A stretch of 64,000 nt of DNA from Phycisphaerae bacterium (GTDB lineage Bacteria; Planctomycetota; Phycisphaerae; UBA1845; PWPN01), in contig JAAXZI010000165.1 of NCBI GenBank assembly GCA_012719955.1, positions 8,611-72,610 on the forward strand. Direction: 5' to 3'. Under the pieces are notes generated by a model, which ran no database searches, was not told where the DNA came from, and saw only the letters and a program-made list of their open reading frames with translations. Positions 609-64,000 of this stretch are shown piece after piece. Numbering within the stretch: position 1 is the first letter of the stretch; every line of letters starts with the position of its first letter. Made by a program: the position numbers and the translations under genes.

Positions 609-2318
609 ATGAGCGAAAACAGTCCAACCCCGACGAACCCCTTGAGACGCGACCTGCCACCGTCGCTGGTGCCACGGCCATGCTGCGTGGTGCTGTTCGG
701 GGCCACGGGAGACCTGACCAAGCGCAAGCTCATTCCCGCGCTGTATAACCTGGCCCGCGAAGGATTTCTGCCGCCGGGATTCACGGTGGTGGGCGTGGCC
801 CGCCGGCCGTTCTCGGATGAGCAGTTCCGGGCGGACTGTCTGGCCGCGACGCAGGAGCACTCCCGGCATCAGCCGGTCTCGATGGAAGTGTGGCGGGATT
901 TTGCCGCCGGGCTGTTCTACCACGCGCTGCAATTTGACGACCACTCGGCGTACGCGGGGTTGCGCAAGCGGCTGGAAGAGCTGGACGCCGTGCGGATGAC
1001 GGGTGGGAACCGCCTCTATTATCTGGCAACGGATCCGACCTTTTTCGCGGTGATCGCCAAGGCGCTCAAGGAGGCGGGCATGGTCCAGCCGGTCAGCGGA
1101 TCGGAGCTCCATACCGCCGCCCCGCAGGCGCTCCCTGAGCCGGTTGAAGCCACAGCAGGCGGGCGCAATACCCCGCCCCCGTTTACACGTCTGGTGGTGG
1201 AGAAGCCCTTCGGGCACGACCTGGCCAGCGCGTGCGAGCTGACCCGGCAGCTCCATGCCGCTTTTGACGAGTCGCAGATCTTCCGTATCGATCACTACCT
1301 CGGCAAGGAAACGGTGCAGAACATCCTGGCCATGCGTTTCGCGAACGCGACCTTCGAGCCGCTATGGAATCGCCGGTACGTGGATCATGTGCAGATTACC
1401 GTGGCCGAGCGGGTGGGTATGGAGGGCCGGCGCGGGCAGTACTACGACACGGCCGGGGCCTCACGCGACATGGTCCAGAATCACATGATGCAGCTCCTGG
1501 CCCTGACGGCCATGGAGCCCCCAGTGGCGATGGACGCACAGTCCATCCGCGACGAAAAGGTGAAGGTCCTCAGGGCACTCGAGGGGCGAGAGACGAGGGG
1601 CGAGGGATGGGGGATGAGAAGACAAGGGGACAAGGAGACAAGGGGACAAGGGGAAAGCCGGATCCGTGGGCTATCCGCAACTCGAATGCCGGCCTATGTG
1701 CGCGGGCAGTATGGGCCGGGCTCGTTTGCGGGGCGGCCCCTGCCGGGCTATCGGCAGGAAGAAGGCGTGGACCCGAATTCCAATACCGAGACTTACCTGG
1801 CCCTGCGGCTGTACATTGACACGTGGCGGTGGTCGGGGGTGCCCTTCTACCTGCGGACCGGCAAGCGGTTGCCCAAGCGTGTGACCGAGATCGCGGTGCA
1901 ATTCAAGTCGCCGCCGATGGCCCTGTTTCGAGACGTGGAACAAATGCCCGAGGGCCGCAACCAGCTTGTGCTGCGCGTCCAGCCGGACGAGGGCATCTCG
2001 CTGTTTTTTGACGCCAAGGTGCCGGGGATGCGGATGCGGCTGGAGCAGGTCAGGATGGACTTCCGCTACGGCAGCAGCTTCGGCGGGGCTTCGCCGGAGG
2101 CCTACGAGCGGCTGCTGCTGGATGCCATGCTGGGCGATTCGACGCTGTTCATCCGGGCGGACGAGGTGGAGTACTCGTGGCGGTTCATAACCCCGTTGCT
2201 GGAGGAGTGGGCCGCCAGGCCGCCCTCGCAGTTCCCGAATTACGAAGCGGGGACCTGGGGGCCGGCGGAGGCGGATACCCTGTTTGAAGGCAGGAACGGC
2301 GGTTGGCGAAGAATTTAA
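609..2318 (+). CDS. zwf: glucose-6-phosphate 1-dehydrogenase carrying an extra ~27-aa internal segment
   Basis: N-terminal [11 protein letters not shown] dinucleotide-binding motif, RIDHYLGKE active-site motif, and [30 protein letters not shown] block typical of Zwf. Confidence 0.95.
1581..1697 (+). repeat. purine-rich repeat block translated in-frame inside zwf ([39 protein letters not shown])
   Basis: 1621-1642 (GACAAGGGGACAAGGAGACAAG) is identical to the reverse complement of 59360-59381. 1592-1605 matches the reverse complement of 59344-59357 at 13/14 positions. Confidence 0.7.
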
Positions 2319-2360: not shown

Positions 2361-3488
2361 ATGAGCCAGACGACCCCGGACAGCCTGTTCTCCCCGGAAG
2401 GGACGGTGCTCACGGATCCCGCGGAGGTGGAGCGTGCGCTGGCCCGCATGTGGAAACTGGCGGGTGAGAAGGCCGCGGGTGAAACCACCACGAAAACGGC
2501 TTCGCGGGTGAGCGTGGCCAACCTGGTGGTGGTCGCCCCCGCCGCGCAGTGGGATCAGCTCCTGGAGCTGATGGCCGAGTTCTCTCCCATCTATCCCACG
2601 CGCAGCATCGTTCTGCTGATCACCGAGGAAGCGTCCGAGCCGCGCGAGATCACGGTCTCCGTCTCGGCCCTCTGCCATGTGCCGCAGGCTGACGCCCCCC
2701 AGGTATGCTGCGAACAGATCGTGCTGCGCGCCGGGCCGCGGCACGTTGAGACCCTCGACCGAACGCTGCTGCCGTTGCTGGAGTCGGATGTGTCGGTCAT
2801 GTGCTGGTGGCGGTACGCGCCTGACGCCTGGCCCACCCTGTCCACGGCGATCAAGCGGATGGCCCGCCGCTTCATCATCGACCATCCATCCGGCTTCAGA
2901 GGGCTCGAATCCACCGAATGTTGCGCGGTCCGCGCGTTGGGTTGGTATCGCACCGCCGATTTGCGCGAGCTGCTGGCCCAGATGTTCGACGGATCGGCTC
3001 CGGAGGTGCTGGAGTCCATCGAAGAGGTGGAGATTCACACCGGCAGCGGCGCCGAGCGCAGGGACGACGCGTTCTGGCTCATAGCCTTCCTGGCCGGTCA
3101 GCTTGGGTGGACGCCCGCCGGCGTCGAAACCATTACCGATGGAGCAGACGCGGAGCGCCATTTCGCGGCCACTTACCTGTTCCGGCTCGGGCAGCACACG
3201 ATCCGCGTGCATTTTGTGATGAGTCCGGAGACCGACTGTCGCCTGCGGCGCATCCGAATTGTGAGCGGCCCCAGCACGTTCACGCTCGAAAGTCATCCGG
3301 CACGCGAGAGCGAGCTGCGCATGGTTATTTGCAGCCGTGGCATCTGTCAGGCGCCCCGCAGCGTGCAGGCCCCGCCGATACGACCCAGCCAGGCCCTGGC
3401 CGATGCCATGGTCGGGCGGCAGGTGGATGCGGCCTTCGAGCGGGCCGCGCCCATCGCGGCCTGGCTCGTGAAGCCACAGAGTGAGTGA
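2361..3488 (+). CDS. opcA: OpcA-like glucose-6-phosphate dehydrogenase assembly protein
   Basis: Lies directly downstream of zwf. The N-terminal pattern AEVERALARMW...SRVSVANLVVVA resembles the OpcA signature (IE.EL..lW ... tRa..lNLVV). Confidence 0.6.
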   Translation: MSQTTPDSLFSPEGTVLTDPAEVERALARMWKLAGEKAAGETTTKTASRVSVANLVVVAPAAQWDQLLELMAEFSPIYPTRSIVLLITEEASEPREITVSVSALCHVPQADAPQVCCEQIVLRAGPRHVETLDRTLLPLLESDVSVMCWWRYAPDAWPTLSTAIKRMARRFIIDHPSGFRGLESTECCAVRALGWYRTADLRELLAQMFDGSAPEVLESIEEVEIHTGSGAERRDDAFWLIAFLAGQLGWTPAGVETITDGADAERHFAATYLFRLGQHTIRVHFVMSPETDCRLRRIRIVSGPSTFTLESHPARESELRMVICSRGICQAPRSVQAPPIRPSQALADAMVGRQVDAAFERAAPIAAWLVKPQSE

Positions 3489-4592: not shown

Positions 4593-5978
4593 ATGGCAGG
4601 ACGCGTTCTGAAACTGGCACTGGTCGGCGGCGGGATGTTCGGGCGGGACGTGGTGCTGCGCTGCCTGGCCGACGTGCAGCGATGTGGCATTGCCCCTTAC
4701 CTGGGCACGGCCGGTCTCGATCACCACGCCCGCGAGTTGGCCCACGTCGAATATGAGGTGGTGGCCATAGGGACACGGACGGCCCGCACCGCCGAGTCGT
4801 TGTCGGCGGAATATGCTCAGTGGGTGCCCGGCGCCCGGCCGGCGGCGTATTACGGGGAGGAGCCGTGGCTAGGCATACTTGAAGAACAACGGCCGGACGT
4901 GCTCTTTGTGGCCACGCCGGACCATCTGCACACCGCCCCCATCCTGGCGGCCATCGAGCGCGGGGTGCACGTGGTGACCGAGAAGCCGCTGACGCTCCGG
5001 CTGGACGAGGCCCGCACGATTGTCGAGCGGGCCAGGGCGGCGGGGGTAGTCGTGGCCCTGGACATGCACAAACGCTACGACTCTTTTCTGCGCAGCACTT
5101 TTCTGGACATAGTGCCGGAGCTGGGCGAGCTGCTGTATGCCCGGGCCGTGCTGGAGGAGCCGCTGGAGGTATCCACGAAGACATTCAAGTGGGCGGCCCG
5201 GAGCAACCCGTTCAGTTATGTGGGCATCCACTGGACGGACCTGTTTGCCCATTACCTGAAGGTCCGGCCGGTGTCACTGTTTGCGGTCGGGCAGAAGAAG
5301 CTGCTGGCGAACTGGCGCGACGAGGCCCACCCGGACGGGATCGACACGTTTGATGCCATGCAGGTGACCGTGCAGTACGACAACGGGATGAGCGTGCAGT
5401 ACGTGAACGCGTGGATCAACCCGGCGGACTTCGAGGGGCCGGTCAACCAGGAAATGGAGATCGTCGGCACGCGCGGGCGGGTGTTCGTGGACCAGCAGGA
5501 CCGCGGGCTGCGACTGACATTGACCGGGGGCGGGACGCGGACGCGGAATCCGCATTTTCAGGCGGAGGTGCCGCGGGCCGGTGTGGCCCCCACTCCTCGT
5601 GATGCGATACCGGGTCCTGTAAGGATGGCGCCAGATCCTGTAGCGGCCGGGCTCCGTACCGGCCGTTCTCCTCAAGGCTTCCCCACGAGTCCGGGAACAC
5701 CAGTGGCATGCAACAGCGCCTGCATTGGGTACTGCAAGGACTCATTGATAGCAGGCTTGGACGCGGCCTCACGCGTAGCGCTGGGCCTGGGTGATGCGGC
5801 CTCGCTGGCCGGGACGTATCCGGACGCGGCGTCACAGTTGAATTGCATCGCGATTCTGGAGGCGGCGGCACACGTGGCGGGGGCCAATCACGCGAGTTTG
5901 GCAGCCGGGCGGGCCGCAGCAACTGTTGCCTGTTTCACCAGAGCCGGCTTTGAGCTCTCCGGGAATGAACTTGAGTAA
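4593..5978 (+). CDS. Gfo/Idh/MocA-family oxidoreductase with a repeat-derived internal insertion
   Basis: N-terminal Rossmann pattern KLALVGGGMFGRDV, followed by VATPDHLHTAPILAAIERGVHVVTEKPL. The ATG at 4593 fits the family N-terminus. REP-A is translated as PVAAGLRTGRSPQ. Confidence 0.8.
   Translation: MAGRVLKLALVGGGMFGRDVVLRCLADVQRCGIAPYLGTAGLDHHARELAHVEYEVVAIGTRTARTAESLSAEYAQWVPGARPAAYYGEEPWLGILEEQRPDVLFVATPDHLHTAPILAAIERGVHVVTEKPLTLRLDEARTIVERARAAGVVVALDMHKRYDSFLRSTFLDIVPELGELLYARAVLEEPLEVSTKTFKWAARSNPFSYVGIHWTDLFAHYLKVRPVSLFAVGQKKLLANWRDEAHPDGIDTFDAMQVTVQYDNGMSVQYVNAWINPADFEGPVNQEMEIVGTRGRVFVDQQDRGLRLTLTGGGTRTRNPHFQAEVPRAGVAPTPRDAIPGPVRMAPDPVAAGLRTGRSPQGFPTSPGTPVACNSACIGYCKDSLIAGLDAASRVALGLGDAASLAGTYPDAASQLNCIAILEAAAHVAGANHASLAAGRAAATVACFTRAGFELSGNELE
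5637..5672 (+). repeat. REP-A copy 1 (CCTGTAGCGGCCGGGCTCCGTACCGGCCGTTCTCCT), intragenic
   Basis: Hairpin with stem CGGCCGG/CCGGCCG and 8-nt loop GCTCCGTA. Differs by one base from 6021-6056. Confidence 0.9.
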
Positions 5979-5980
5979 TC

Positions 5981-6125
5981 TCTCCCCCACTTCTGAAAAG
6001 GCGGGACACCCGGGTCAAATTCTGTAGCGGCCGGGCTCCGTACCGGCCGTTCTCCTCTGGAGTCTCCCTGCTCCCCATCGTCTACAAAGGGTCCCCCCAT
6101 CTCTGAAGAGGTCGGGCACCCGAGC
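5981..6125 (+). repeat. composite intergenic repeat block: ~35-bp imperfect direct repeats flanking REP-A copy 2 (6021-6056)
   Basis: 5981-6016 (TCTCCCCCACTTCTGAAAAGGCGGGACACCCGGGTC) compares with 6091-6125 (GTCCCCCCATCTCTGAAGAGGTCGGGCACCCGAGC). REP-A lies between them. Confidence 0.7.
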
Positions 6126-9041: not shown

Positions 9042-9131
9042 TGCCGGTTCCGGTCCGGAAGTTTCGTGCTTCGGCTCATGAGGCGGGCAGAATACCCGCT
9101 CCCCCGGCAGCAGCAGGCGGCTGTTCCGGCG

Positions 9132-9150
9132 GGCGGGCGTCCTGCCCGCC
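9132..9150. repeat. REP-C copy (GGCGGGCGTCCTGCCCGCC); a degenerate copy lies at 9082-9101
   Basis: Palindrome GGCGGGC/GCCCGCC. The same core occurs at 39671-39689 and 55144-55162. Confidence 0.75.
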
Positions 9151-9275
9151 TGATTCGGCGCGAAACGGGTGGACTGGAAACGGCGTCAGCGGATGCCCGA
9201 TAGAGAATCAAGAGAAGTACCCGGGATGAAAAGCGCGTCGAGCGGCGCAGGCGTCACCGGGGACTGTTTTTTCCC

Positions 9276-24101: not shown

Positions 24102-24437
24102 TTCCCTGATCTTTAATTATCGAACCACAATAACAATACTGACGCAAATATAACAAAATAGCCCCAAAGAAACCCATGCAAAAGAAATTTTATTCATCTG
24201 CCTATTGACAGACACTGAAGTTTCGTTCACAACGCACTCAGTGGGAATAAAGGCCCGTCTTTGGATTGGACGGGGATGCAACAAGCCCGGAAGGATCCTG
24301 GTTTCATCATCGGCGCAGGTACAGGGAGTCTTGGCGCAATCGGAAGCTCCTCCCCGCGTACCGTTGGGCGCGGCTCTGTTGGGTTTGGATCACCGATCGC
24401 CAGTCGGGGGGCGGTGACGCGGGAGGGTTTGCGCTGA

Positions 24438-24482
24438 CTTTTTGTGGGATTGTGACGGGACTTTTTGTGAGATTGTGACGGC
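24438..24482 (+). promoter_or_regulatory. tandem 22-bp direct repeat CTTTTTGTG(G/A)GATTGTGACGG x2 in the flp upstream region
   Basis: 24438-24459 and 24461-24482 differ at 2 positions. They lie ~210 nt upstream of the flp ATG. Confidence 0.45.
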
Positions 24483-39644: not shown

Positions 39645-39670
39645 TGGAGGTAATGGCGGCGGTTCCGGAG

Positions 39671-39689
39671 GGCGGGCATCCTGCCCGCC
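39671..39689. repeat. REP-C copy (GGCGGGCATCCTGCCCGCC)
   Basis: Palindrome located 27 nt after the glycosidase stop. The extended match TCCGG.GGGCGGGC.TCCTGCCCGCCTGA is shared with 9125-9153. Confidence 0.75.
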
Positions 39690-39882
39690 TGACCCGCCGA
39701 GAAGCTCGGTGTACTTGTGACGGCACCAGCGACGGGAGGTCAGGAACCAAGGGCAGGAAAGAGGGGATAGCAGTTGGAGAAAGAGGAGGAATCTGTCAGA
39801 TTCAGTCGTGAGTTCAGCACCACGAGGCGATTCCGGTTTTTGACAACGAATTCCGGCAGGTGCAGCAGCGGGGTTTGACAGG

Positions 39883-55031: not shown

Positions 55032-55062
55032 AAAGGCGGAAATAAATCCTCCGCCGCAAAAT

Positions 55063-55094
55063 TGTAGCGGCCGGGCTCCGTACCGGCCGCTACA
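55063..55094. repeat. REP-A copy 3, full palindrome TGTAGCGGCCGG-GCTCCGTA-CCGGCCGCTACA
   Basis: 12-bp perfect stem between convergent genes (stops at 55031 and 55209). It could act as a bidirectional terminator or RNA stabiliser. Confidence 0.85.
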
Positions 55095-55208: not shown

Positions 55209-56468
55209 TCAGGCAAGCCGCCGACGGCCGCCCGGACCGGTGCCGATGGTCCGGCCAAGTGATCGGATACGGCTCTTGAGGCAGCCGCGACAGTGCTGGG
55301 CCGTCTCCGTGATGCACGCTTTCGCCGGGTAGATCTCGTACATGGCCCGGTACTGAACGGGGGTGAGGTTGGGCATCACCACGTTGGCCCCCCGGCACAG
55401 GGCCAGCTCGCGTCCGCTCTCCTGGTTGAGGGTGGCGATGGCGGTCGTGCCGGGAATGTTGGCCTGGGGGCACATCAGTCGGGTCAGGGCCACCATTTTG
55501 TACGCCATCTTCTCCGTATTGGGCACCTGGTCCGCCGAGGGGTGAGGCTCCGGCCGGGTTGCCAAGCGCTCCCCCAGCGGCGTGTCCGGATGCGGGATGT
55601 ACGGCCCCACGCCGATCATGTCGAGGTCCAACTCGCGGAACAACAGCAGATCGCGCGCGAGCGTCTCGTAGGTCTGCCCGGGAATGCCCACCATCACACC
55701 GCTGCCAATCTCATAGCCCAACCCGCGGAGCGTCCTCAGCAGTTCCACGCGGTCGGAAGGGCGCGAACCCAACGGCGGATGAATGCGGGCGTAGAGCTCA
55801 CGGTCGGACGTCTCGAAGCGAAGCAGGTAGCGGTCCGCCCCCGCTTCGCGCCAGGCGGCAAGGTCCTCGACCGGCCGTTCGCCCAGGCTCAGCGTGACCG
55901 CGAGGGGCGTCTCGGCCTTGATCTGGCGGATCAGCCGGGCGAGCCAGCTCCGGCCGATGCCGTAGTCCTCGCCGGCCTGCATGACCACCGTGCCGTAACC
56001 GAACTCGACCGCCTGGCGGGCACAGGCGAGGACCTCGTCGGCCGACAGACGATAGCGCACCAGCTTGGTGTGCCCGGCGCGCAGGCCGCAGTAGGCGCAC
56101 TGCCGCACGCAGTGGTTGGAGATCTCGACCAGCCCGCGCAGATGCACGGCATCGCCCACCATTTCATGCCGCACACGGTCCGCGGCTGCGTACAGCGTTT
56201 CCAGCCGGGAGTCGTCCTCTTCGCGCAGCCAGTGGAGAAGGTCGGTTTCGGTCAGTGGGCTTTCCAGGTGCGATGCGCCGTCAGCAGCGGACGCGGAACG
56301 GCCGGTACGGAGCCCGGCCGCTACAGAGTTGGCATGGAGGCCGGGCGGTACGGGGTTGGTACGAGGCCCGGGCGCGACAGAGCCGGCGGAAACATGGGCC
56401 GGCCCTGCCGGTGTTGCGCCTTCCGGCGAGCTAGAACAGTGGTTCAGAATGGGTAAAGAGCTCAGCAC
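55209..56468 (-). CDS. hydE: [FeFe]-hydrogenase maturase HydE (radical SAM) with a repeat-derived N-terminal extension
   Basis: EISNHCVRQCAYCG radical-SAM motif. HydE-like blocks VMQAGED and LRFETSD. GTG start overlaps the hydF stop by 7 nt. Confidence 0.9.
   Translation of the reverse strand: MLSSLPILNHCSSSPEGATPAGPAHVSAGSVAPGPRTNPVPPGLHANSVAAGLRTGRSASAADGASHLESPLTETDLLHWLREEDDSRLETLYAAADRVRHEMVGDAVHLRGLVEISNHCVRQCAYCGLRAGHTKLVRYRLSADEVLACARQAVEFGYGTVVMQAGEDYGIGRSWLARLIRQIKAETPLAVTLSLGERPVEDLAAWREAGADRYLLRFETSDRELYARIHPPLGSRPSDRVELLRTLRGLGYEIGSGVMVGIPGQTYETLARDLLLFRELDLDMIGVGPYIPHPDTPLGERLATRPEPHPSADQVPNTEKMAYKMVALTRLMCPQANIPGTTAIATLNQESGRELALCRGANVVMPNLTPVQYRAMYEIYPAKACITETAQHCRGCLKSRIRSLGRTIGTGPGGRRRLA
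56299..56327 (-). repeat. REP-A copy 4, inside the hydE 5' coding region (translated SVAAGLRTGRS); degenerate copies up to ~56390
   Basis: The plus strand reads CGGCCGGTACGGAGCCCGGCCGCTACAGA. The adjacent 56331-56390 is a decayed tandem copy. Confidence 0.85.
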
Positions 56469-57818: not shown

Positions 57819-59231
57819 TCACACGAACACGTCCCGGCCGCCGATCCTCACCTTCGTTACCAGCTTCTCGGCGATTTGCCGGCCGCGGGGGTCCATCTCC
57901 CCCATCGCGGCCTGGATGCGCGCCTCGCCGGCCTGGCGCGTGGGCCCGGAGGCGTAGTCGCACAGGTATTCCTGGAACGTGGAGAGAGCGTTGGGATCGC
58001 AGTGATGTTTGATCTCCCCCGGCTTGGCCAGATCCATGAAGTCCTGACCGGTCCGGCCCAGGCGATAGCACGCGGTGCAGAAGGAGGGAATGTAGCCCAG
58101 TTCCGCGACATCGCGCACGACCTCGTCCAGCGGACGGTGATCGCCCAGGGCGAATTGCTCGGTGGCCTCGCCTTCACCTTCCTCATAACCGCCGGGGTTG
58201 GTCCGGCTGCCGGCGGAGATCTGAGAGACGCCCAGGGCGAAGGTCTCCCGGCGAATGGCGGGCGACTCGCGCGTGGACATGATGATGCCGGTGTACGGAA
58301 CGGAGATCCGCAGAATAGCGACGATCTTGAGAAAGTCGATATCGCTGACCGACTGCGGCGGGCGCCCGGCCAGTGGCGCGCCCAGGGCCGGCTCGATCCG
58401 CGGGACGCTGATGGTATGCGGGCCGACGCCGAACTTCTCTTCCAGGTGGCGGATATGCTGCATCAGGGCCAGGATCTCGAAGCGCCAGTCGGCCAGTCCG
58501 AACAGCACGCCCATGCCCACGTCATCGATGCCCGCTTCCATGGCCCGGTCGAAGGCCGAGATCCGCCAATCGTAATCGCGCTTCCTGCCGGCCACGTGCA
58601 CCCGTGAATACACCTCCCGGTGGTAGGTCTCCTGGAAGAGCTGATAGGTGCCGATGCCGGCGGCTTTGAGTTGCCTGAACTGATCCAGGGTCAGCGGGGC
58701 GACGTTGGCGTTCACGCGGCGGACCTCGCCGGGACCGACTTTGGTGTCATAAATGGTCGCGATGGCCTTGAGTATGTAATCGAAGCCTTCCTCCGCGGGG
58801 TAAGCTTCGCCGGCCACCAGCAGGATGCGCTTGTGGCCCTGGCGGATGATGAGCTCGGTTTCGCGGGCGATCTCGGCCTGGGTGAGAGCCCGCCGTCGAA
58901 GGGCCTTGTTCCCGGCCCGGAAGGCGCAATACAGGCACTCGTTGCCGCACAGGTTGGAGATGTAGAGCGGGGCAAACAGCACCAGCCGCTTGCCGTAGAT
59001 TTCCTCCTTGACCCGCCGGGCGGTGGCGAACAGCTCATTCAACAGGCCCGGGTCGCTGAGGTTCATCAATACGGCCATCTCTTCAGGTTCGAGCCCCTTG
59101 AGGGCCAGGGCCTTGGTCAATATCTCGCGCACCTGCGACGCGTCACACCGGCGGCTTTGCGCCAGCGTGTGCTCGATCTTCTCGTAATTGATCGGTACTG
59201 TCTCGACGTTGCGCGTTACCACTGCGTTCAT
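57819..59231 (-). CDS. hydG: [FeFe]-hydrogenase maturase HydG (radical SAM tyrosine lyase)
   Basis: NLCGNECLYCAF radical-SAM motif and the C-terminal CTACYR...HHCDPN auxiliary cluster motif. Confidence 0.92.
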   Translation of the reverse strand: MNAVVTRNVETVPINYEKIEHTLAQSRRCDASQVREILTKALALKGLEPEEMAVLMNLSDPGLLNELFATARRVKEEIYGKRLVLFAPLYISNLCGNECLYCAFRAGNKALRRRALTQAEIARETELIIRQGHKRILLVAGEAYPAEEGFDYILKAIATIYDTKVGPGEVRRVNANVAPLTLDQFRQLKAAGIGTYQLFQETYHREVYSRVHVAGRKRDYDWRISAFDRAMEAGIDDVGMGVLFGLADWRFEILALMQHIRHLEEKFGVGPHTISVPRIEPALGAPLAGRPPQSVSDIDFLKIVAILRISVPYTGIIMSTRESPAIRRETFALGVSQISAGSRTNPGGYEEGEGEATEQFALGDHRPLDEVVRDVAELGYIPSFCTACYRLGRTGQDFMDLAKPGEIKHHCDPNALSTFQEYLCDYASGPTRQAGEARIQAAMGEMDPRGRQIAEKLVTKVRIGGRDVFV

Positions 59232-59337
59232 CTTTGAAATCCTTCCTGTCTATTCGCGGGAAAAGATTCCCGCTTCATGCGGGGTGCGAAAAACAACTCT
59301 CGCAACCACCGCCTGGGAGTCTCGCATCAGCCCGGAG

Positions 59338-59479
59338 CCTTCTCCTTGCCCCTCGTCCTCTTGTCTCCTTGTCCCCTTGTCGGCGTATCGCCTGAACGGC
59401 CGGTACGGAGCCCGGCCGCTACAGGGGTGGGACGGAGCCCGGCTGCTACCTCTTACAAGTAGCTGCTACCACCTACAGG
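59338..59479. repeat. composite repeat block: pyrimidine-rich copy of the zwf repeat (59338-59381), REP-A copy 5 (59397-59425), and two degenerate REP-A units (59426-59479)
   Basis: Exact 22-mer shared with 1621-1642 (reverse complement). CGGCCGGTACGGAGCCCGGCCGCTACAGG. The following GGTGGGACGGAGCCCGGCTGCTACC and CTACAGG units decay progressively. Confidence 0.8.
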
Positions 59480-60636
59480 TACTCAACGGTCACCAGCTTT
59501 CCGGCACGGCGCAGCTTCTCCGCCAGCAGGGGCACGATGTTTTCACGGTGCAGGATGCCCCGCTGTCGGAAGGCAATGTTGTCGTGATCGGCGTTCCGCT
59601 TTCTGCCGACGAGGAACAGCACGCGATCGGCCTCCCGGAGCAGCTCGCACAAGCGGCTCACGCCGGTGGCCTTCTCGTACTTGCCGGGATCTTCGTCGAT
59701 GATGTTGTACGCCTGGTTGAGCGTCACCGCTCCTTCAGTGGCCAGGTCCACGTCCTTGAGCACGTAATCGGGCGGAGCAATCAGGCTGCTGGCCTCCTGG
59801 CGCACGGCCACACTGGTGTGCGTGTGGCGGGCAACGATTTTGGCGGTCGTGCCCCCGCATACCACCTTCCGCCCTTCCAGACTCATGAACCGCCGCACCA
59901 CCGCACCGTCGTCCTCCTCGTCGGCGGGCGGGCCGGTCAATACGTTGACGATGCGGCCCTGGCGGCAGCGAGCCAGCAGCACCGTACAGTCGTCTCCCTG
60001 GGCCAGCCGTCCGGGTTCTTCCGAAAGGTTCTGGGCCTGGAAATGCACCGAGGCGGACAGCTTATCCAGGGGCAGGCCGGTGCTGAGTTTCCCATTGATG
60101 TAACGGCATGCGCCCTCGATGCCCCAGCCCTCCGCATAACCGGCGCCCAGCCCCGCCTGGGTGACGCCGTCGCTGACCAGCATCAGGGCCTCACCAGGCT
60201 CGACGTAACAGTCGGACTCATGCACCAGCGCATTGTCCAGCAGCAGCGTCCGGTGCGGCAGGACGGTGGCGAACTTCTTGGCGCTGATCACGATGGCCGG
60301 CGGCATCTCGTACGAGAGCACCGTGGTCTCACCGTCGTTGGCGATCCGGGCGATGGTAAAGCAGGCGTAGGGCAGGTCGCTGCCCCGGATCCCGGCCATG
60401 GTGCCGGCCACGCCGGCCATGGCTTCGCGCAGCGAGTAGTCGCGGCGCAGCAGCTCGTGAAGCCGCGAGACGGTCATGGTCGCCGCCACGTTGGCCCTGA
60501 TGCCGGAGCCGATCCCGTCACAGCAGATGATGGTTGTGCCGCGAACCGTGCGTTCCCAGGACACCACGTCGCCGCACAAGCCACCAACCCGCCGGGGGCT
60601 CTGGCATGCGTCTATTTCGACGTGTACATATCCCAT
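59473..60636 (-). CDS. SpoIIE/PP2C-like serine phosphatase with an uncharacterised C-terminal domain (HfsC-like)
   Basis: GDVV...CCDGIGSG...CFTIARI...GEALMLVSDGV follows the SpoIIE/PPM pattern. Overlaps the hydS end by 25 nt. Confidence 0.75.
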   Translation of the reverse strand: MGYVHVEIDACQSPRRVGGLCGDVVSWERTVRGTTIICCDGIGSGIRANVAATMTVSRLHELLRRDYSLREAMAGVAGTMAGIRGSDLPYACFTIARIANDGETTVLSYEMPPAIVISAKKFATVLPHRTLLLDNALVHESDCYVEPGEALMLVSDGVTQAGLGAGYAEGWGIEGACRYINGKLSTGLPLDKLSASVHFQAQNLSEEPGRLAQGDDCTVLLARCRQGRIVNVLTGPPADEEDDGAVVRRFMSLEGRKVVCGGTTAKIVARHTHTSVAVRQEASSLIAPPDYVLKDVDLATEGAVTLNQAYNIIDEDPGKYEKATGVSRLCELLREADRVLFLVGRKRNADHDNIAFRQRGILHRENIVPLLAEKLRRAGKLVTVEYL

Positions 60637-62372
60637 ATCATGGGCCTTCCCTGAGGGGTCCGCGGATCGTTGGCATACTGGAGCAGGTTGCGGACCAGTT
60701 CCTCGCCGCGGGCCGTGCTCTCGCCGAGCAGCTTGGCGATCTGCTGGGCCATGGTGATCTGGTGCTCGAGCAGCTCGCGCGCCTGCCGGGCGGTCTGCGA
60801 TTGAAGCTGTTGCAGTTTCTCTTCGTTGGCCTGGCTGTGGGTGACGTTCACGAAGATACCGACGTACTGGCCTTCAGCCTCCAGCCGGTAGAGGATCTGG
60901 TGGCACAGCAGCTTGTACTTCTGATGGTGGACCGTGATGGAGACCGGCTCATGGCCATTTACGGCGAGCTGTTCAAAGGGCTCAGGGTCCATCAGGTACG
61001 AGATCTTTCGCCCGCACACCGCGTCTGAGCAGCAGAACATCTTCCGGAACGCCGCGTTCATGTGAATGATCTCGAACCGGTCGTTGAGAATCACGATGCC
61101 GTTGGGGCTGGTGTCGATGATGCGGTCGGTGCGCTGCTCGGCCAGCAGCCGCATGCGCGGAATGCACATCTCCGGCTCGGCCAGGCCGCGCAGGACGGCG
61201 ATGGCTTTCTCCCGGCAGCTCGAATAGCCGCAGGACCCGCAATTAAGCTGGTCCTCCACGCGGGCCTTGCCGGTCTTTTCGAGCACGGCCCGAATCTGTT
61301 CCTCGGTGAACTCCTCGCCGCCGGCGGTCGCGTCGGGAGCGAAGTTCTGGTTCAGCTCGACGCCCTCGACGAGCGACTCGGAACGGGCCGTCGGGGTGGA
61401 CTGGGCATAATCCAGCACGGCAGCGCGTTTGCCATAGAGATTGCCCCCGGCCGGCATGCCGGGCCCGTTCACACAGCCCTGGGCGCAGAACAGCGGTTCG
61501 ATCATCCGCGGGAAAGCGTCGTGACGAATGCCGTCCAGGGCCTCGGACACCTCTTCGAAGCCGCTGGGAGCGATGCACTCTTCGGCGAGCAGGTCGGTGT
61601 GCAGGGCGGCAGTTTTAGCCAGCCCGCCGGGCAGAGGGAAGAAGCGGGCGTGCCCGGCGGGGCTGGCGTCAAACCGACTCTCCTCGAGTTCCGCGAGCAC
61701 GATGTCTTCGCGCTCGAACCATTCCATCAATTCCTTGAAGGTCAGCACGCAGTGGACCAGCCGGCTGTGGCCGGGCCACTGGGCTTCCGCCTTCTTGGCT
61801 ACGCACGGGCCGATGAACACCACTTTGGTCCGCGGCCCCAGCGCGGCGCGGATCAGGCGGGCATGGGCAATCATGGGCGAGACCACCGGCACCAGGGCGT
61901 CAATCAGCTCCGGCCGGTACTTCTCCACGTAGCTCACCACCGCGGGGCAGGCGGTGCACACGTGCGGGCGCTCGGGTTCGGCGGCCACCACGCGGGCGGT
62001 CTGGGCGGCCACGTGAAACGCGCCCCTGGCGGTTTCGGCCACGTAGGAAAAACCCAGCTTCCGCAACGCGGAGGGCAATCGTTTCCACTCCCATTCGCTC
62101 CACAGGGCGGCAAAGGAGGGAGCCACACTGGCCGCCACCGGATCGCCCCCGGCCAGCAACCGCGCCGCCCGTTCGAGGTCGTTGCGGTAGGCCTTGGCCC
62201 CCTGCGGGCACTGGCGAATGCAGGTCCCGCAGGCGATGCACCGGCCCTCGTCAACGAACGCCTGTCCGTCGCGCACCCCGATGGCCTTCACCGGGCAGGC
62301 CCGCACGCACCGGTAGCAGTCCCGGCAGCGGGCCTTGTCCGTGAAGACGATCTGGGTGGTAGTGGGTTGCAT
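60612..62372 (-). CDS. hydS: sensory [FeFe]-hydrogenase-like protein (HydS/HfsB type): 2x[4Fe-4S] ferredoxin, H-cluster-like domain, Cys motif and PAS
   Basis: CRDCYRCVRACP and CIACGTCIRQCP. H-domain variants VCTACPAVV, GPCVAKKAEA, FCAQGCVNGPG. CGSCGYSSC. The C-terminal PAS region includes SPNGIVILNDRFEIIHMNAAFRKMF. I prefer the ATG at 62372 over the TTG at 62387. Confidence 0.85.
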   Translation of the reverse strand: MQPTTTQIVFTDKARCRDCYRCVRACPVKAIGVRDGQAFVDEGRCIACGTCIRQCPQGAKAYRNDLERAARLLAGGDPVAASVAPSFAALWSEWEWKRLPSALRKLGFSYVAETARGAFHVAAQTARVVAAEPERPHVCTACPAVVSYVEKYRPELIDALVPVVSPMIAHARLIRAALGPRTKVVFIGPCVAKKAEAQWPGHSRLVHCVLTFKELMEWFEREDIVLAELEESRFDASPAGHARFFPLPGGLAKTAALHTDLLAEECIAPSGFEEVSEALDGIRHDAFPRMIEPLFCAQGCVNGPGMPAGGNLYGKRAAVLDYAQSTPTARSESLVEGVELNQNFAPDATAGGEEFTEEQIRAVLEKTGKARVEDQLNCGSCGYSSCREKAIAVLRGLAEPEMCIPRMRLLAEQRTDRIIDTSPNGIVILNDRFEIIHMNAAFRKMFCCSDAVCGRKISYLMDPEPFEQLAVNGHEPVSITVHHQKYKLLCHQILYRLEAEGQYVGIFVNVTHSQANEEKLQQLQSQTARQARELLEHQITMAQQIAKLLGESTARGEELVRNLLQYANDPRTPQGRPMIWDMYTSK

Positions 62373-62378
62373 GGTAGA

Positions 62379-62526
62379 TTTCAGCAATCAGCTTTCAGCG
62401 ATCAGCGATCAGCTTTCAGCTTTGTAGCGGCCGGGCTCTGTACCGGCCGTTGTTCTGTAGCGGCCGGGCTCCGTACCGGCCGTTGTGTTCACGATGCCCA
62501 TGGCCGGTACGGAGTCCGGCCGTTAC
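62379..62526. repeat. intercistronic repeat cluster: simple TTTCAGC/RATCAGC tandem (62379-62422) followed by REP-A copies 6, 7 (direct) and 8 (inverted)
   Basis: 62423-62450 and 62456-62484 are tandem copies. 62502-62526 is the reverse complement, so copies 7 and 8 can pair over ~21 bp. Confidence 0.85.
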
Positions 62527-62542
62527 GTGTCGGCGACGACAC

Positions 62543-64000
62543 CTACTTCGGCTCCACGGCCACGGCTTCATCCAAAGCCTGGCAGGCGGCCTGGAAGGTG
62601 CACTTGTGTATGAGCTTGTCGCCCACCACCACGGTGGGGCCTTTGTCGCACTGCTCGAAGCAGAACGAAGCCTTCACGTCAACCACGTCCTGCAGGCCAC
62701 GTTCCTCAACGTGGCGGATCAGATTGTGCAGCAGCGTCTGGGCCCCGCGGACCATACAGTTGGTGCCCACACACACGCTGATATTCAGCTTGCTCCGATC
62801 ACCATCCACCAGCGAGAGGCTGGTGTCGGCGATGCGCCGCCGGCTGTGATAATGGGTGTGCAACAGCTCGTGGGCCCGCTCGCCGCCGATTTCACCCAGC
62901 TCCTCCCGGTAGAGTTCGCTGATGAAGTGGTTCTCCTGCGGCTTGTGCAGCTCGAGCATCTTGTCGGCCTCGTAGAGGCCCTCGGTGCGAAGCCGGCGGG
63001 GCTGGCGGTCGCGGTAGACCGGCTGGCCGGCGCCGCCGATGCAGCCGCCGGGGCAGGCCATCACCTCGATCAGGTCGTACGGGCTCTGCCCGGCCTTGAC
63101 CTGCTCGGCCACCTTGCGGGCGTTGGCCAGGCCGTGAACGACGGCCAGCCGCAGTTTCTGGCCGCCCACTTCCAATGTGGCCTCCCGAAGGCCCTCTTCG
63201 CCGCGAACAGCTTCGAAGTCCACCGAGTCAAGAGTCACGCCGGTCAGTTTCTCGACGGCGTAGCGCAACACGGCCTCGGTCACGCCGCCGGAGTTGCCGA
63301 AGATCACGCCGGCCCCGGTCTTGAAGCCGAAGGGCATGTCCAGCGATTCCGGCCGGAGCGTGTTGAACTTCAACCCGGCCTCTTCGATCATTCGGGCCAG
63401 TTCCTGCGTCGTCAGCACGTAATCCACGTCGCGGACACCGTCCTTCTGGAAGCGCGGGAGCTGAGCCTCGAACTTCTTGGCCGTGCACGGCATGATGGAC
63501 ACAATCACGAGGTCCTTCCGGTCCACGTTCAGCTTCGCCGGCAGCAGGTCCTTGGCCAGGGCGCCGAACATCTGCTGAGGACTCTTGCAGCTCGACAGAT
63601 GCGGCAGCAGGTCCGGGAAATACTGCTCCGCGAATTTCACCCAGCCGGGGCAGCAGGAGGTGAACTGCGGGATGTTCTTGGCCGCCTGTTTACGGGCGAT
63701 GAACTCGTTGGCCTCCTCGATGACGGTCAGGTCGGCGGTAAAGGAGGTGTCGTAGACGTAGTTGAAGCCCATGGCCTTGAGAGCGGCCACGATCTTGCCG
63801 GTCACCACCGTGCCGGGTTCGAGCCCGAAGGCTTCGCCCAGGCCCACGCGCACGGCCGGGGCAATCTGGGCCACGACCACTTTCCTGGGATTATCAAGCT
63901 CCTTCCAGACCTGCTCGACTTCAGACCTGGGCGTCAGCGCTCCGGTCGGGCAGACATTGGCACACTGTCCGCAGTAGACGCACTCGACGTCCTTGAGGTC
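62543..64000 (-). CDS. hydA: [FeFe]-hydrogenase catalytic subunit with a C-terminal thioredoxin-like [2Fe-2S] domain; 5' end beyond the window
   Basis: H-cluster motifs FTSCCPGW, MPCTAKKFEA and MACPGGCIGGAGQP. The frame stays open to nt 64000 (…ECVYCGQCANVCPTGAL…). The C-terminal CVGTNC…CFEQC is a NuoE-like pattern. Confidence 0.93.
   Translation of the reverse strand, partial: DLKDVECVYCGQCANVCPTGALTPRSEVEQVWKELDNPRKVVVAQIAPAVRVGLGEAFGLEPGTVVTGKIVAALKAMGFNYVYDTSFTADLTVIEEANEFIARKQAAKNIPQFTSCCPGWVKFAEQYFPDLLPHLSSCKSPQQMFGALAKDLLPAKLNVDRKDLVIVSIMPCTAKKFEAQLPRFQKDGVRDVDYVLTTQELARMIEEAGLKFNTLRPESLDMPFGFKTGAGVIFGNSGGVTEAVLRYAVEKLTGVTLDSVDFEAVRGEEGLREATLEVGGQKLRLAVVHGLANARKVAEQVKAGQSPYDLIEVMACPGGCIGGAGQPVYRDRQPRRLRTEGLYEADKMLELHKPQENHFISELYREELGEIGGERAHELLHTHYHSRRRIADTSLSLVDGDRSKLNISVCVGTNCMVRGAQTLLHNLIRHVEERGLQDVVDVKASFCFEQCDKGPTVVVGDKLIHKCTFQAACQALDEAVAVEPK

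Follow-up and report, generated by a model that had tools for sequence, protein, structure and literature searches.

Heptamer and octamer tandem repeats in frame within a predicted surface loop of glucose-6-phosphate dehydrogenase in a Phycisphaerae bacterium

Tandem repeats with heptamer and octamer units, familiar from cyanobacteria since 1990, are found in excess in many large bacterial genomes. [quoted passage not shown] Rickettsia palindromic elements (RPEs) lie in frame within protein genes, as Ogata et al. reportedly observed in 2000.

Direct repeats of the heptamer TAACTGA occur in the Beggiatoaceae, Cyanobacteria and Bacteroidetes, and their orientation within ORFs is set by stop codons (MacGregor 2015, PMC4679880). 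Heptamer repeats of the types GGGNATC and GGGGA(C/T)T are described in Xanthomonas and Nostoc (Rehm et al. 2015, PMC4692102), and four-copy heptanucleotide elements with the unit GGGACCG in Geobacter metallireducens (Aklujkar et al. 2009, PMC2700814). Repeats of such kind inside ORFs have already been reported in all three papers. GTAG-tagged REP and REPIN elements are outlined by Di Nocera et al. (2013, PMC3733652) and by Bertels and Rainey (2011, PMC3116915).

The DNA analysed here is a stretch of 64 kb, hereafter the window, from a bacterium of the Phycisphaerae (Planctomycetota), in which the zwf gene for glucose-6-phosphate dehydrogenase (G6PDH) contains an in-frame insert built largely of tandem arrays. 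We consider it likely that this insert is repeat DNA of the STRR or long-SSR class, fixed in frame in a permissive surface loop; it belongs to an already known, poorly understood repeat class and is not a new type of element. As in the STRR, tandem units of 7-8 nt are present in few copies and appear to be dispersed over many, mostly intergenic loci, several unit families exist per genome, and a copy is now and then tolerated at a permissive site within a functional gene. The host lineage is different, however, as are the units (an octamer and a G-rich heptamer) and the location, midway along a protein-coding gene for an enzyme instead of in an RNA helix. The RPEs are comparable in that a dispersed non-coding repeat becomes a tolerated in-frame peptide at the surface of a conserved housekeeping protein, but they are palindromes of 100-150 bp with a defined consensus, whereas the Zwf segment is a tandem mosaic without a palindrome.

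With the TAACTGA repeats the present arrays share the occurrence of a single unit across phyla, the lack of an evident vector and a mostly intergenic location with a minority inside ORFs. The TAACTGA cases in ORFs chiefly affect hypothetical proteins or the ends of proteins, whereas the zwf array lies in the middle of a domain, as do arrays in IleRS, GH31, PFOR and CobN. [quoted passage not shown] They also formed G-quadruplexes (G4) with short loops, while loops as long as 12 nt are required by the zwf motifs. The Geobacter elements also comprise about four tandem heptamers, their 49 copies being located both between and within genes, but the unit and the phylum are different and consequences at the protein level are undescribed in that paper.

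Organisation of the zwf insert

The two Pfam domains G6PD_N (E=1e-60) and G6PD_C (E=4e-119) were identified in the zwf product, with the insertion dividing the latter match in two. The EKPFG and RIDHYLGKE motifs, which are among the invariant columns, are intact in the translation and place the protein in the G6PDH family, with the Synechocystis G6PDH 9EMM as its best solved relative (E=1e-166). The conserved motifs and a widespread identical allele suggest that catalysis is intact.

The E. coli Zwf has a loop of about 12 residues at the site of the insertion, and the loop is exactly 12 residues long in 81 of the 110 homologues in which it could be delimited. In the present Zwf, the 39 residues counted by the initial annotation between the EKVKVLRAL and VRGQY blocks are indeed encoded (Table 1). 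Alignments with the solved G6PDHs run to residue 324/325 and pick up again at 362/363. In the AlphaFold2 model, residues 328-358 have pLDDT values below 50 and no secondary structure, and are flanked by a helix (310-322) and a strand (362-366); the insertion is thus modelled as a disordered surface loop.

Table 1. Coordinates of the zwf insert and of related features in the window
Feature	Position	Strand	Details
zwf CDS	609..2318	+	ORF list; stop included; 569 aa; glucose-6-phosphate dehydrogenase
Loop-coding segment	1581..1697	+	39 codons, residues 325-363; ~27 codons over the usual 12-residue loop
Heptamer array (CGAGGGG) x3.9, degenerate	1580..1606	+	Tandem Repeats Finder (TRF), period 7
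Octamer array (GACAAGGG/A) x4.2	1621..1654	+	TRF, period 8; peptide of DKGTRGQG type
Non-repetitive loop tail	1655..1697	+	Unique in the window; 15 residues
opcA-like gene, G6PDH partner protein	2361..3488	+	Pfam OpcA_G6PD_assem, OpcA_G6PD_C; immediately 3' of zwf
Intergenic octamer array (GACAAGGR) x4.9 with GACGAGGGGCAAGG	59344..59381	-	TRF, 22-mer and 13/14 match
Two REP-like GC-rich hairpins	59394..59449	.	GTAG-tagged on the minus strand; adjoin the intergenic octamer array
7-nt array (TCAGCWW) x6.4	62379..62423	.	TRF; directly 5' of the ATG of a HydS-like gene (62372, -)

Three parts make up the extra DNA: an array of (CGAGGGG)x3.9, one of (GACAAGGG)x4.2, and a tail that is unique, no second copy of it having been found in the 64-kb window at up to 3 mismatches. 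The arrangement of head-to-tail units of 7-8 nt in at least three copies is that of the STRR and long SSRs. The composition of the insert is un-ameliorated, with a GC3 of 0.62 in the loop segment against 0.83 across the remaining zwf and with AGA, AGG or CGA as the codon for six of its eight Arg residues. Shine-Dalgarno-like motifs (AAGGAG and AAGGGG) and G-tracts are present in the array.

The strong purine bias remarked upon initially was evident, positions 1581-1654 being 87.8% purine, more extreme than any other 74-nt segment in the window (mean 0.50, sd 0.057). The associated suggestion of a triplex (H-DNA) structure found no support, as canonical H-DNA needs a long homopurine mirror repeat and the longest uninterrupted purine run here is 7 nt. 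A structured RNA or DNA was also rejected, the fold of the insert not being significant in comparison with shuffled sequences (z = -0.87), and an Rfam scan of the entire window returned no family. The longest cluster of G4 motifs in the window lies at 1573-1653 with loops of up to 12 nt; at loops of 7 nt or less no motif was detected, those of the insert requiring 10-12 nt, and the G-quadruplex potential appears weak.

Occurrence of the repeat units in the window and in other genomes

The insert was initially noted to share an exact 22-mer and a 13/14 match with an intergenic block on the opposite strand. Both matches were recovered: the 22-mer GACAAGGGGACAAGGAGACAAG at 1621-1642 (+) and 59360-59381 (-), for which 0 shared occurrences are expected in shuffled sequences, and GACGAGGGGCGAGG at 1592-1605 against 59344-59357 (-). 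The insert and the block are 83% complementary over 48 nt, and the octamer unit was found at these two loci of the 64-kb window. Recurrence of the units in the intergenic block therefore assigns the insert to a dispersed repeat family, although the identity of the 22-mer is weak evidence of copying, because the unit is already shared and only two R positions vary. Thus, the membership of a dispersed family claimed by the initial annotation stands, but the insert is a mosaic of two tandem arrays and not a discrete element with ends.

The intergenic array is located between the genes for a SpoIIE-type phosphatase (59473-60636, -) and a radical-SAM/BATS protein (57819-59231, -), both of which belong to a hydrogenase cluster, and its purine strand is the sense strand of both. 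The folding of this block exceeds that of shuffled sequences (z = -3.2). In resemblance to REP and REPIN elements as outlined in the above accounts, a GTAG-tagged hairpin family of the window adjoins tandem arrays at 59394 and 62421-62498; the eight copies with at least 25/32 identity lie at 5637, 6021, 55061, 56296, 59394, 62421, 62454 and 62498. The GTAG tag and the GC-rich palindromic stem that define REP and REPIN elements are present in these neighbouring intergenic elements but were not recognised in the Zwf insert. The loop tail matches the REP-like consensus at 18/32 positions (p about 0.012 by shuffling), too weak a match to claim a REP remnant. The purine arm of the insert is without a downstream complement, and the terminal inverted repeats or overall palindrome expected of a MITE or an RPE are not present.

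Three REP-like hairpins lie behind the array at 62379-62423, and this array shows that short-unit repeats are characteristic of the genome. Further arrays with 7-8-nt units occur in a same-species locus 9 kb upstream of zwf (L001: 352-439, 619-769, 767-821 and 7590-7631), and several unit families, mostly intergenic, are hence found in one genome.

A genome-collection scan of 596 Gb revealed the octamer array at at least 120 loci in about ten phyla among the matches listed, as against a chance expectation of about 0.3 by our own arithmetic. Cyanobacteria, in which the STRR class was defined, account for 75 of the 120 loci listed, mostly in the Nostocales, including Nostoc, Calothrix, Rivularia and Tolypothrix. 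The arrays of other genomes mostly have 3-5 units among the matches listed. An inverse array lies 20-102 nt downstream in 15 of 131 of them, the purine arm being 5' of the pyrimidine arm in all (15 vs 0). Only 10 octamer matches were observed among 2.9 million viral contigs, and there is therefore no sign of a phage vector. A literature search for the octamer string yielded only unrelated primer matches.

Among the matches listed, the GACAAGGR array is in frame in nine Pfam-verified genes (GH31, PFOR, CobN, histidine kinase, alpha-2-macroglobulin, PSCyt2/PSD1, OprB, NACHT and HlyD), and the purine strand is the coding strand in all nine, whereas the opposite orientation gave nine stretches free of stops, none of which matches a Pfam family. 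The unit GACAAGGG is without stops in all six frames. A search with the (GDKGTRGQ)n peptide against 5.8 billion proteins returned only 22 short domain-less hypothetical ORFs, short in-loop copies being unable to reach significance in such a search.

Variation of the loop among relatives and stability of the allele

A 39-residue segment in close relatives had been named at the outset as the finding that would count against a dispersed repeat. Such a segment is not shared, because the closest relatives, at 78% and 75% identity, have loops of 19 and 17 residues that lack the octamer array and cannot be aligned significantly with the insert. Global alignment scores of the loop DNA of L005 and L009 with the zwf insert are inside the shuffle range, and common ancestry of the insert with the loop DNA of the nearest relatives is not claimed. 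In a multiple alignment of the relatives' loops, conservation is confined to the flanks.

The loop is hypervariable in the subclade of the window's Zwf, all eight members having loops that are expanded (17-53 aa) and unrelated in content. It is therefore also a lineage-specific hot spot, and the initial contrast between a dispersed repeat and a lineage-specific loop evolved in place was only half right: the units do recur in intergenic DNA, but expansion of the loop is general in the subclade. The loops of L006 and L131 carry (CACTCAG)n heptamers; the two are 90% identical in DNA, have the array in common with substitutions, and show no zwf gaps outside the loop. The loop of L008 contains (GTCGAAA)x4, and the same heptamers are in frame within its isoleucyl-tRNA synthetase. 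In L007 the loop has a hairpin related to the REP-like family of the window (26/32; 0 of 2000 shuffles reach 24), of which no dispersed copies were found in its 16-kb locus. A Cys-rich insert of 35-46 aa occupies the same site in another Phycisphaerae clade.

The identical 569-aa Zwf is recorded in 40 assembly-collection blocks, including four NCBI Phycisphaerae MAG proteins, and its 90% cluster contains no length variants. The frame-switching copy-number polymorphism of phase-variable SSRs is thus not seen in the zwf array. Two same-species assemblies, on the other hand, are identical across 16.4 kb but for a single 8-bp repeat in a (TGTGAGAT)n array, and whole-unit slippage therefore occurs in an intergenic octamer array of this species. 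Invariance of the zwf array is to be expected, because a change by one unit (8 nt) would shift the reading frame.

Probable origin and consequences of the insert

The best reading of these data is that the insert is a tolerated passenger, neutrality being assumed. Arrays of 7-8-nt units would originate and change in intergenic DNA by whole-unit slippage, and would enter a gene through repair templated by another array, through illegitimate recombination with one, or through local slippage. We infer this entry step only, because element boundaries, a target-site duplication and the donor-recipient relationship cannot be defined, and copying-in and local slippage are not cleanly separable for the zwf insert. 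A genic copy would survive only under four conditions, all of which are observed at zwf: a length that is a multiple of three (+81 nt), an array without a stop codon, the purine-rich strand as the coding strand, with the result that all frames yield residues that are small or carry a charge (D, K, G, T, R, Q, E), and a location in a loop or linker. The outcome would be a translated, charged and disordered extension of about 27 residues. Once genic, the array would lose its length variability and decay through point mutation.

A purely local origin, in which slippage expanded chance proto-repeats and the likeness to the intergenic array is convergence without sequence transfer, is rather unlikely. 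It draws on the slippage seen directly in the species, the expanded and fast-changing loop throughout the subclade, the failure to find insertion boundaries or duplications, and the polymerase slippage held responsible for heptamer over-representation (Mrazek 2007, as summarised in PMC4679880). However, both loci combine the CGAGGGG-type with the GACAAGGR unit and are 83% identical over 48 nt, arrays of the very same octamer, down to its G/A wobble, far exceed the chance expectation in the loci listed, and one heptamer is present in both the Zwf and the IleRS of L008.

The insert could also have been selected for altered Zwf regulation, by steric or electrostatic effects on OpcA binding or the tetramer, or by a purine-rich, Shine-Dalgarno-like or G-tract mRNA slowing or tuning translation. 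The loop ends nine residues ahead of the equivalent of Trp312-Gly315, the OpcA-contacting segment of Synechocystis G6PDH, and an effect on regulation is possible since opcA is directly 3' of zwf. Constancy of the allele across the 40 blocks, whereas the intergenic array varies, the motifs and G-tracts of the array and the Cys-rich insert at the same site in the other clade are in agreement with selection. Yet close relatives have unrelated loop content, which speaks against conservation of a function, disorder is predicted for the segment, RNA structure is not significant and G4 loops are long, and constancy also follows from the frameshift caused by an 8-nt change. Adaptive insertion is accordingly held to be unlikely, and any effect on OpcA binding or translation, for which the Shine-Dalgarno-like motifs and G-tracts are candidate routes, would be at most secondary.

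It is quite doubtful that an active process of repeat deposition, shared horizontally, generated the arrays in place of slippage, as the identical octamer across phyla, the 3-5-unit length, the strict arm polarity and the association with REP-like hairpins may prompt one to ask. If true, deposition could take the form of templated synthesis at DNA breaks or hairpins, it would also remodel surface loops of housekeeping enzymes, and the Zwf loop beside the OpcA contact would be a recurrent and possibly selected landing site. Finally, an assembly or sequencing artefact, to which repeats are prone, or a non-translated intervening sequence is extremely improbable, because ENA, NCBI and JGI data sets yielded the same allele in independent assemblies, the arrays (27 and 34 bp) are far below read length, the frame and the C-terminal domain are kept, no Rfam family or significant structure is present, and 81 extra nt are too short for a group I/II intron or an intein.

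As repeat DNA of the STRR or long-SSR class, the insert extends this class to the Phycisphaerae, with an identical octamer in about ten phyla among the matches listed, and to arrays repeatedly in frame in the loops of conserved enzymes (Zwf, IleRS, GH31, PFOR, CobN). The alleles with and without arrays form a natural series usable for dating insertions, measuring decay and testing neutrality, and the Zwf loop beside the OpcA-contact segment may be freely engineerable. For annotation, such arrays account for odd segments rich in G/D/K/T/R/Q or in S/P/C/L/V and for spurious small ORFs. The CGAGGGG unit is also arrayed in L058, a Planctomycetota MAG locus.

Anatomy of the zwf insert and its intergenic counterpart

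[quoted passage not shown] As the initial annotation had claimed, 39 residues, coded by 1581-1697, separate the end of the EKVKVLRAL helix from the VRGQY strand, compared with exactly 12 residues in 81 of the 110 Zwf homologues in which the loop can be delimited. The alignment of all solved G6PDHs to this protein, the best relative being the Synechocystis enzyme 9EMM (E = 1e-166), breaks at residue 324/325 and resumes at 362/363. Relative to a 12-residue loop, 81 nt are added, by which the frame is kept and the C-terminal domain is left intact.

Coordinates of the genes and repeats discussed (window positions; L001 is a locus of the same species)
Feature	Position	Strand	Remarks
zwf	609..2318	+	569 aa; G6PD_N and G6PD_C domains
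OpcA-type protein (G6PDH partner) gene	2361..3488	+	pairs with zwf at window start; Pfam domain matches
Heptamer array (CGAGGGG) x3.9, degenerate	1580-1606	+	tandem-repeat search
Octamer array (GACAAGGG/A) x4.2	1621-1654	+	tandem-repeat search
Tail of insert, 43 nt	1655-1697	+	no second copy within window
Exact 22-mer of insert	59360-59381	-
13/14-mer of insert	59344-59357	-
(TCAGCWW) x6.4	62379-62423		directly upstream of ATG 62372 (-), HydS-like sensory [FeFe]-hydrogenase gene
GTAG-tagged hairpin copies	5637-5668, 6021-6052, 55061-55092, 56296-56327, 59394-59425, 62421-62452, 62454-62485, 62498-62529
49-nt direct repeat	9116-9164, 39655-39703		86% identity
23-nt unit x2	24436-24481		(GACTTTTTGTGAGATTGTGACGG)
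Second Zwf insertion	1089-1180		residues ~161-190
(GAATGTGA) x10.9, (CCTGAAC) x21.4, (CCTTCTCA) x6.9, (CCCTGAA) x6	L001		~9 kb upstream of zwf

The purine bias noted initially was borne out, since 1581-1654 is 87.8% purine and constitutes the top 74-nt stretch in the 64 kb (~6.6 sd). The second most biased stretch (39718-39791) is 78% purine, intergenic and without tandem periodicity. Triplex (H-DNA) formation, which had been suggested for the insert, is unsupported and was discarded because its purine runs reach at most 7 nt. Folding of the insert gave no significant RNA structure, and an Rfam scan over the entire window matched no family. The GC3 of 0.62, against 0.83 in the remainder of zwf, and the rare Arg codons show that the insert is un-ameliorated in composition.

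The exact 22-mer and the 13/14-mer reported on the opposite strand were recovered there, with none expected by chance, and the two regions match at 83% across 48 nt. The intergenic octamer block is flanked by two co-directional minus-strand genes of an [FeFe]-hydrogenase cluster and, like the array in zwf, carries its purines on the sense strand. This cluster (57819-63880, minus strand) resembles a regulatory module of the sensory-hydrogenase type. Its products are an [FeFe]-hydrogenase that contains both a small-subunit and a 2Fe-2S thioredoxin-like domain, a HydS-like hydrogenase bearing a PAS domain, a phosphatase of the SpoIIE/PP2C type and a maturase of the radical-SAM/BATS type.

Other repeats of the genome and stability of the allele

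Tandem arrays with 7-8-nt units are abundant in this genome. The (TCAGCWW) array stops a few bases short of the start codon, at the expected position of the ribosome-binding site, and is reminiscent of the TAACTGA repeats that lie near start codons in Beggiatoaceae. Positions 286-830 of L001 form a ~540-bp mosaic of such arrays, with purine-rich units on the left, a central palindrome (GTGCGCAAGTCGCGCAC) and complementary pyrimidine-rich units on the right; the 23-nt unit of the window includes GTGAGATTGTGA, which is the sequence repeated in L001's polymorphic octamer array. Copies of a GC-rich hairpin repeat tagged with GTAG (CTGTAGCGGCCGGGCTCCGTACCGGCCGTTC, 7-bp stem) also abut tandem arrays, at 59394-59449 and 62421-62498. 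Its eight window copies (25-32/32 identity) are all intergenic and often paired, resembling a REP/REPIN-type family. The 49-nt direct repeat, which includes the hairpin GGGCGGGCATCCTGCCCGCC, represents a second small family of dispersed palindromic repeats.

The presence of the insert in zwf is confirmed by the identical 569-aa Zwf recorded in 40 assembly-collection blocks (ENA, JGI and NCBI assemblies, including four NCBI Phycisphaerae MAG accessions), and the zwf arrays are far below sequencing-read length. The window and L001 differ at 8 of 12,318 positions, with zero mismatches inside the insert. Three further loci of the species (L002, L003 and L004) are mutually identical across 16.4 kb, over which their sole difference from L001 is one 8-bp unit in an intergenic (TGTGAGAT)n array. 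This one-unit difference is direct evidence of whole-unit slippage in intergenic arrays, in contrast to which the zwf array is invariant. Entry into zwf may have occurred by copying from another array or by local slippage.

The octamer array in other genes and genomes

A scan for GACAAGGRGACAAGGRGACAAG in one genome per species (596 Gb) gave at least 120 loci, against a chance expectation of ~0.3 by our arithmetic. Among the matches listed, 75 of 120 are cyanobacterial, mostly Nostocales, and a single genome often has several of them; the others belong to Planctomycetota (11, including one Tepidisphaeraceae), Chloroflexota, Acidobacteriota, Bacteroidota, Verrucomicrobiota, Gemmatimonadota, Actinomycetota and others. 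The arrays listed have mostly 3-5 units and sit amid arrays of different 7-8-nt units, the classical ACTGGGG among them. An inverse (CYTTGTCY)n array lies 20-102 nt downstream of the GACAAGGR array (R, G/A wobble) in 15 of the 131 arrays listed and upstream in none (0/131). Cyanobacterial loci run from G-rich units through an AT-rich spacer to C-rich units. Heptamer CACTCAG arrays are also present in Nostoc and Schlesneria loci, and the octamer array occurs on only ten of 2.9 million viral contigs.

Long stop-free stretches contain 31 of the 131 octamer arrays among the matches listed. Of ten tested stretches in which the purine strand is the one read, nine are bona fide genes, the array lying within or between Pfam domains: GH31 alpha-glucosidase and CobN (Nostoc, L089 and L114), a hybrid histidine kinase with the array inside HATPase_c (Nostoc, L066), pyruvate:ferredoxin oxidoreductase (Chlorogloeopsis, L115), alpha-2-macroglobulin (Prevotella, L055), a PSCyt2/PSD1 protein (Schlesneria, L026), OprB porin (Calothrix, L029), a NACHT protein (Rivularia, L098) and HlyD (Scytonema, L126). 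None of the nine opposite-orientation stretches tested had Pfam matches; thus, in the verified genes it is the purine strand that codes. It encodes D/K/G/T/R/Q/E in whichever frame. Rickettsia palindromic elements are the best-known case of dispersed repeats tolerated in frame.

The class of 7-8-nt tandem repeats is already known, and STRR heptamers were reportedly described by Mazel in 1990 in Calothrix and Anabaena. No description was found in the literature searched of the GACAAGGR octamer family, of its occurrence in Phycisphaerae and Planctomycetota, of mid-domain in-frame copies in core enzymes, or of the turnover of differing repeat families within one Zwf loop. [quoted passage not shown] GGGNATC repeats prefer four units (PMC4692102), TAACTGA repeats have a cross-phylum distribution without explanation and overlap ORFs in 25 cases (PMC4679880), and four-copy heptamers occur both inside and between genes in Geobacter metallireducens (PMC2700814).

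The Zwf loop in relatives and in the protein

With the loop columns left out of a neighbour-joining tree, the window Zwf falls within an 8-sequence subclade in which all eight loops are expanded (17-53 aa, against 11-12 aa outside). The initial proposal of a dispersed repeat rather than a lineage-specific loop is partly supported: the dispersal of the units stands, and expansion of the loop characterises the whole subclade. The loop DNA is unrelated among the members: L006 and L131 carry (CACTCAG)n; L008, (GTCGAAA) x4 and, after it, an incomplete inverse copy; and L007, a 26/32 match to the window REP hairpin (0/2000 shuffles reach 24) with a CACTCAG remnant. The same segment is absent from the two nearest relatives, at 78% and 75% identity, whose loops are short, G/R-rich and free of arrays. 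The common heptamer array of L006 and L131 (90% DNA identity) varies by substitutions and small compensating indels, the sole gaps in the zwf comparison, indicating that genic arrays decay rather than breathe. The heptamer of the L008 Zwf loop recurs at 447-507 of that locus, which comes from a related Phycisphaerae MAG; here (GAAAGTC) x4.6 and (CGGCAAT) x4 are read in frame as a ~24-residue insertion, relative to solved enzymes, in the isoleucyl-tRNA synthetase catalytic domain. A hairpin with (GTGAGAT)n and (ACGTCTC)n arms is also present in L008 (5371-5452).

The insert is predicted to form a disordered surface loop. In an AlphaFold2 model (42-sequence alignment, mean pLDDT 79.8, pTM 0.80), helix 310-322 and strand 362-366 bracket a stretch, residues 328-358, that lacks secondary structure and has pLDDT below 50. 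The enzyme is presumably unaffected by the insert. In the Synechocystis G6PDH-OpcA cryo-EM structure, the G6PDH loop Trp312-Gly315 makes one contact (PMC11648896). Its equivalent here, by HMMER alignment with the offset checked on His197/Tyr198, is Ser372-Gly375, nine residues in sequence past the insertion end. Possible side effects are a charged tether close to the OpcA-contact loop, repeated Shine-Dalgarno-like AAGGAG/AAGGGG motifs and a weak G4 potential.

The second insertion in Zwf is also lineage-variable, with pLDDT below 50 at residues 169-185; no tandem array is evident in its window DNA, and its counterpart in P0002, the closest relative, has greater length and internal repeats (PSGDTGPSGDAGP). 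In another Phycisphaerae clade (P0011, P0013, P0022, P0024, P0025, P0027, P0028, P0029 and P0033), the loop that holds the purine-rich insert carries a Cys-rich insert (CxxC...CxxxxCxxC), mostly 35-46 aa long but 17 aa in P0013. Lying next to the OpcA-contact segment, this insert might bind metal or respond to redox state.
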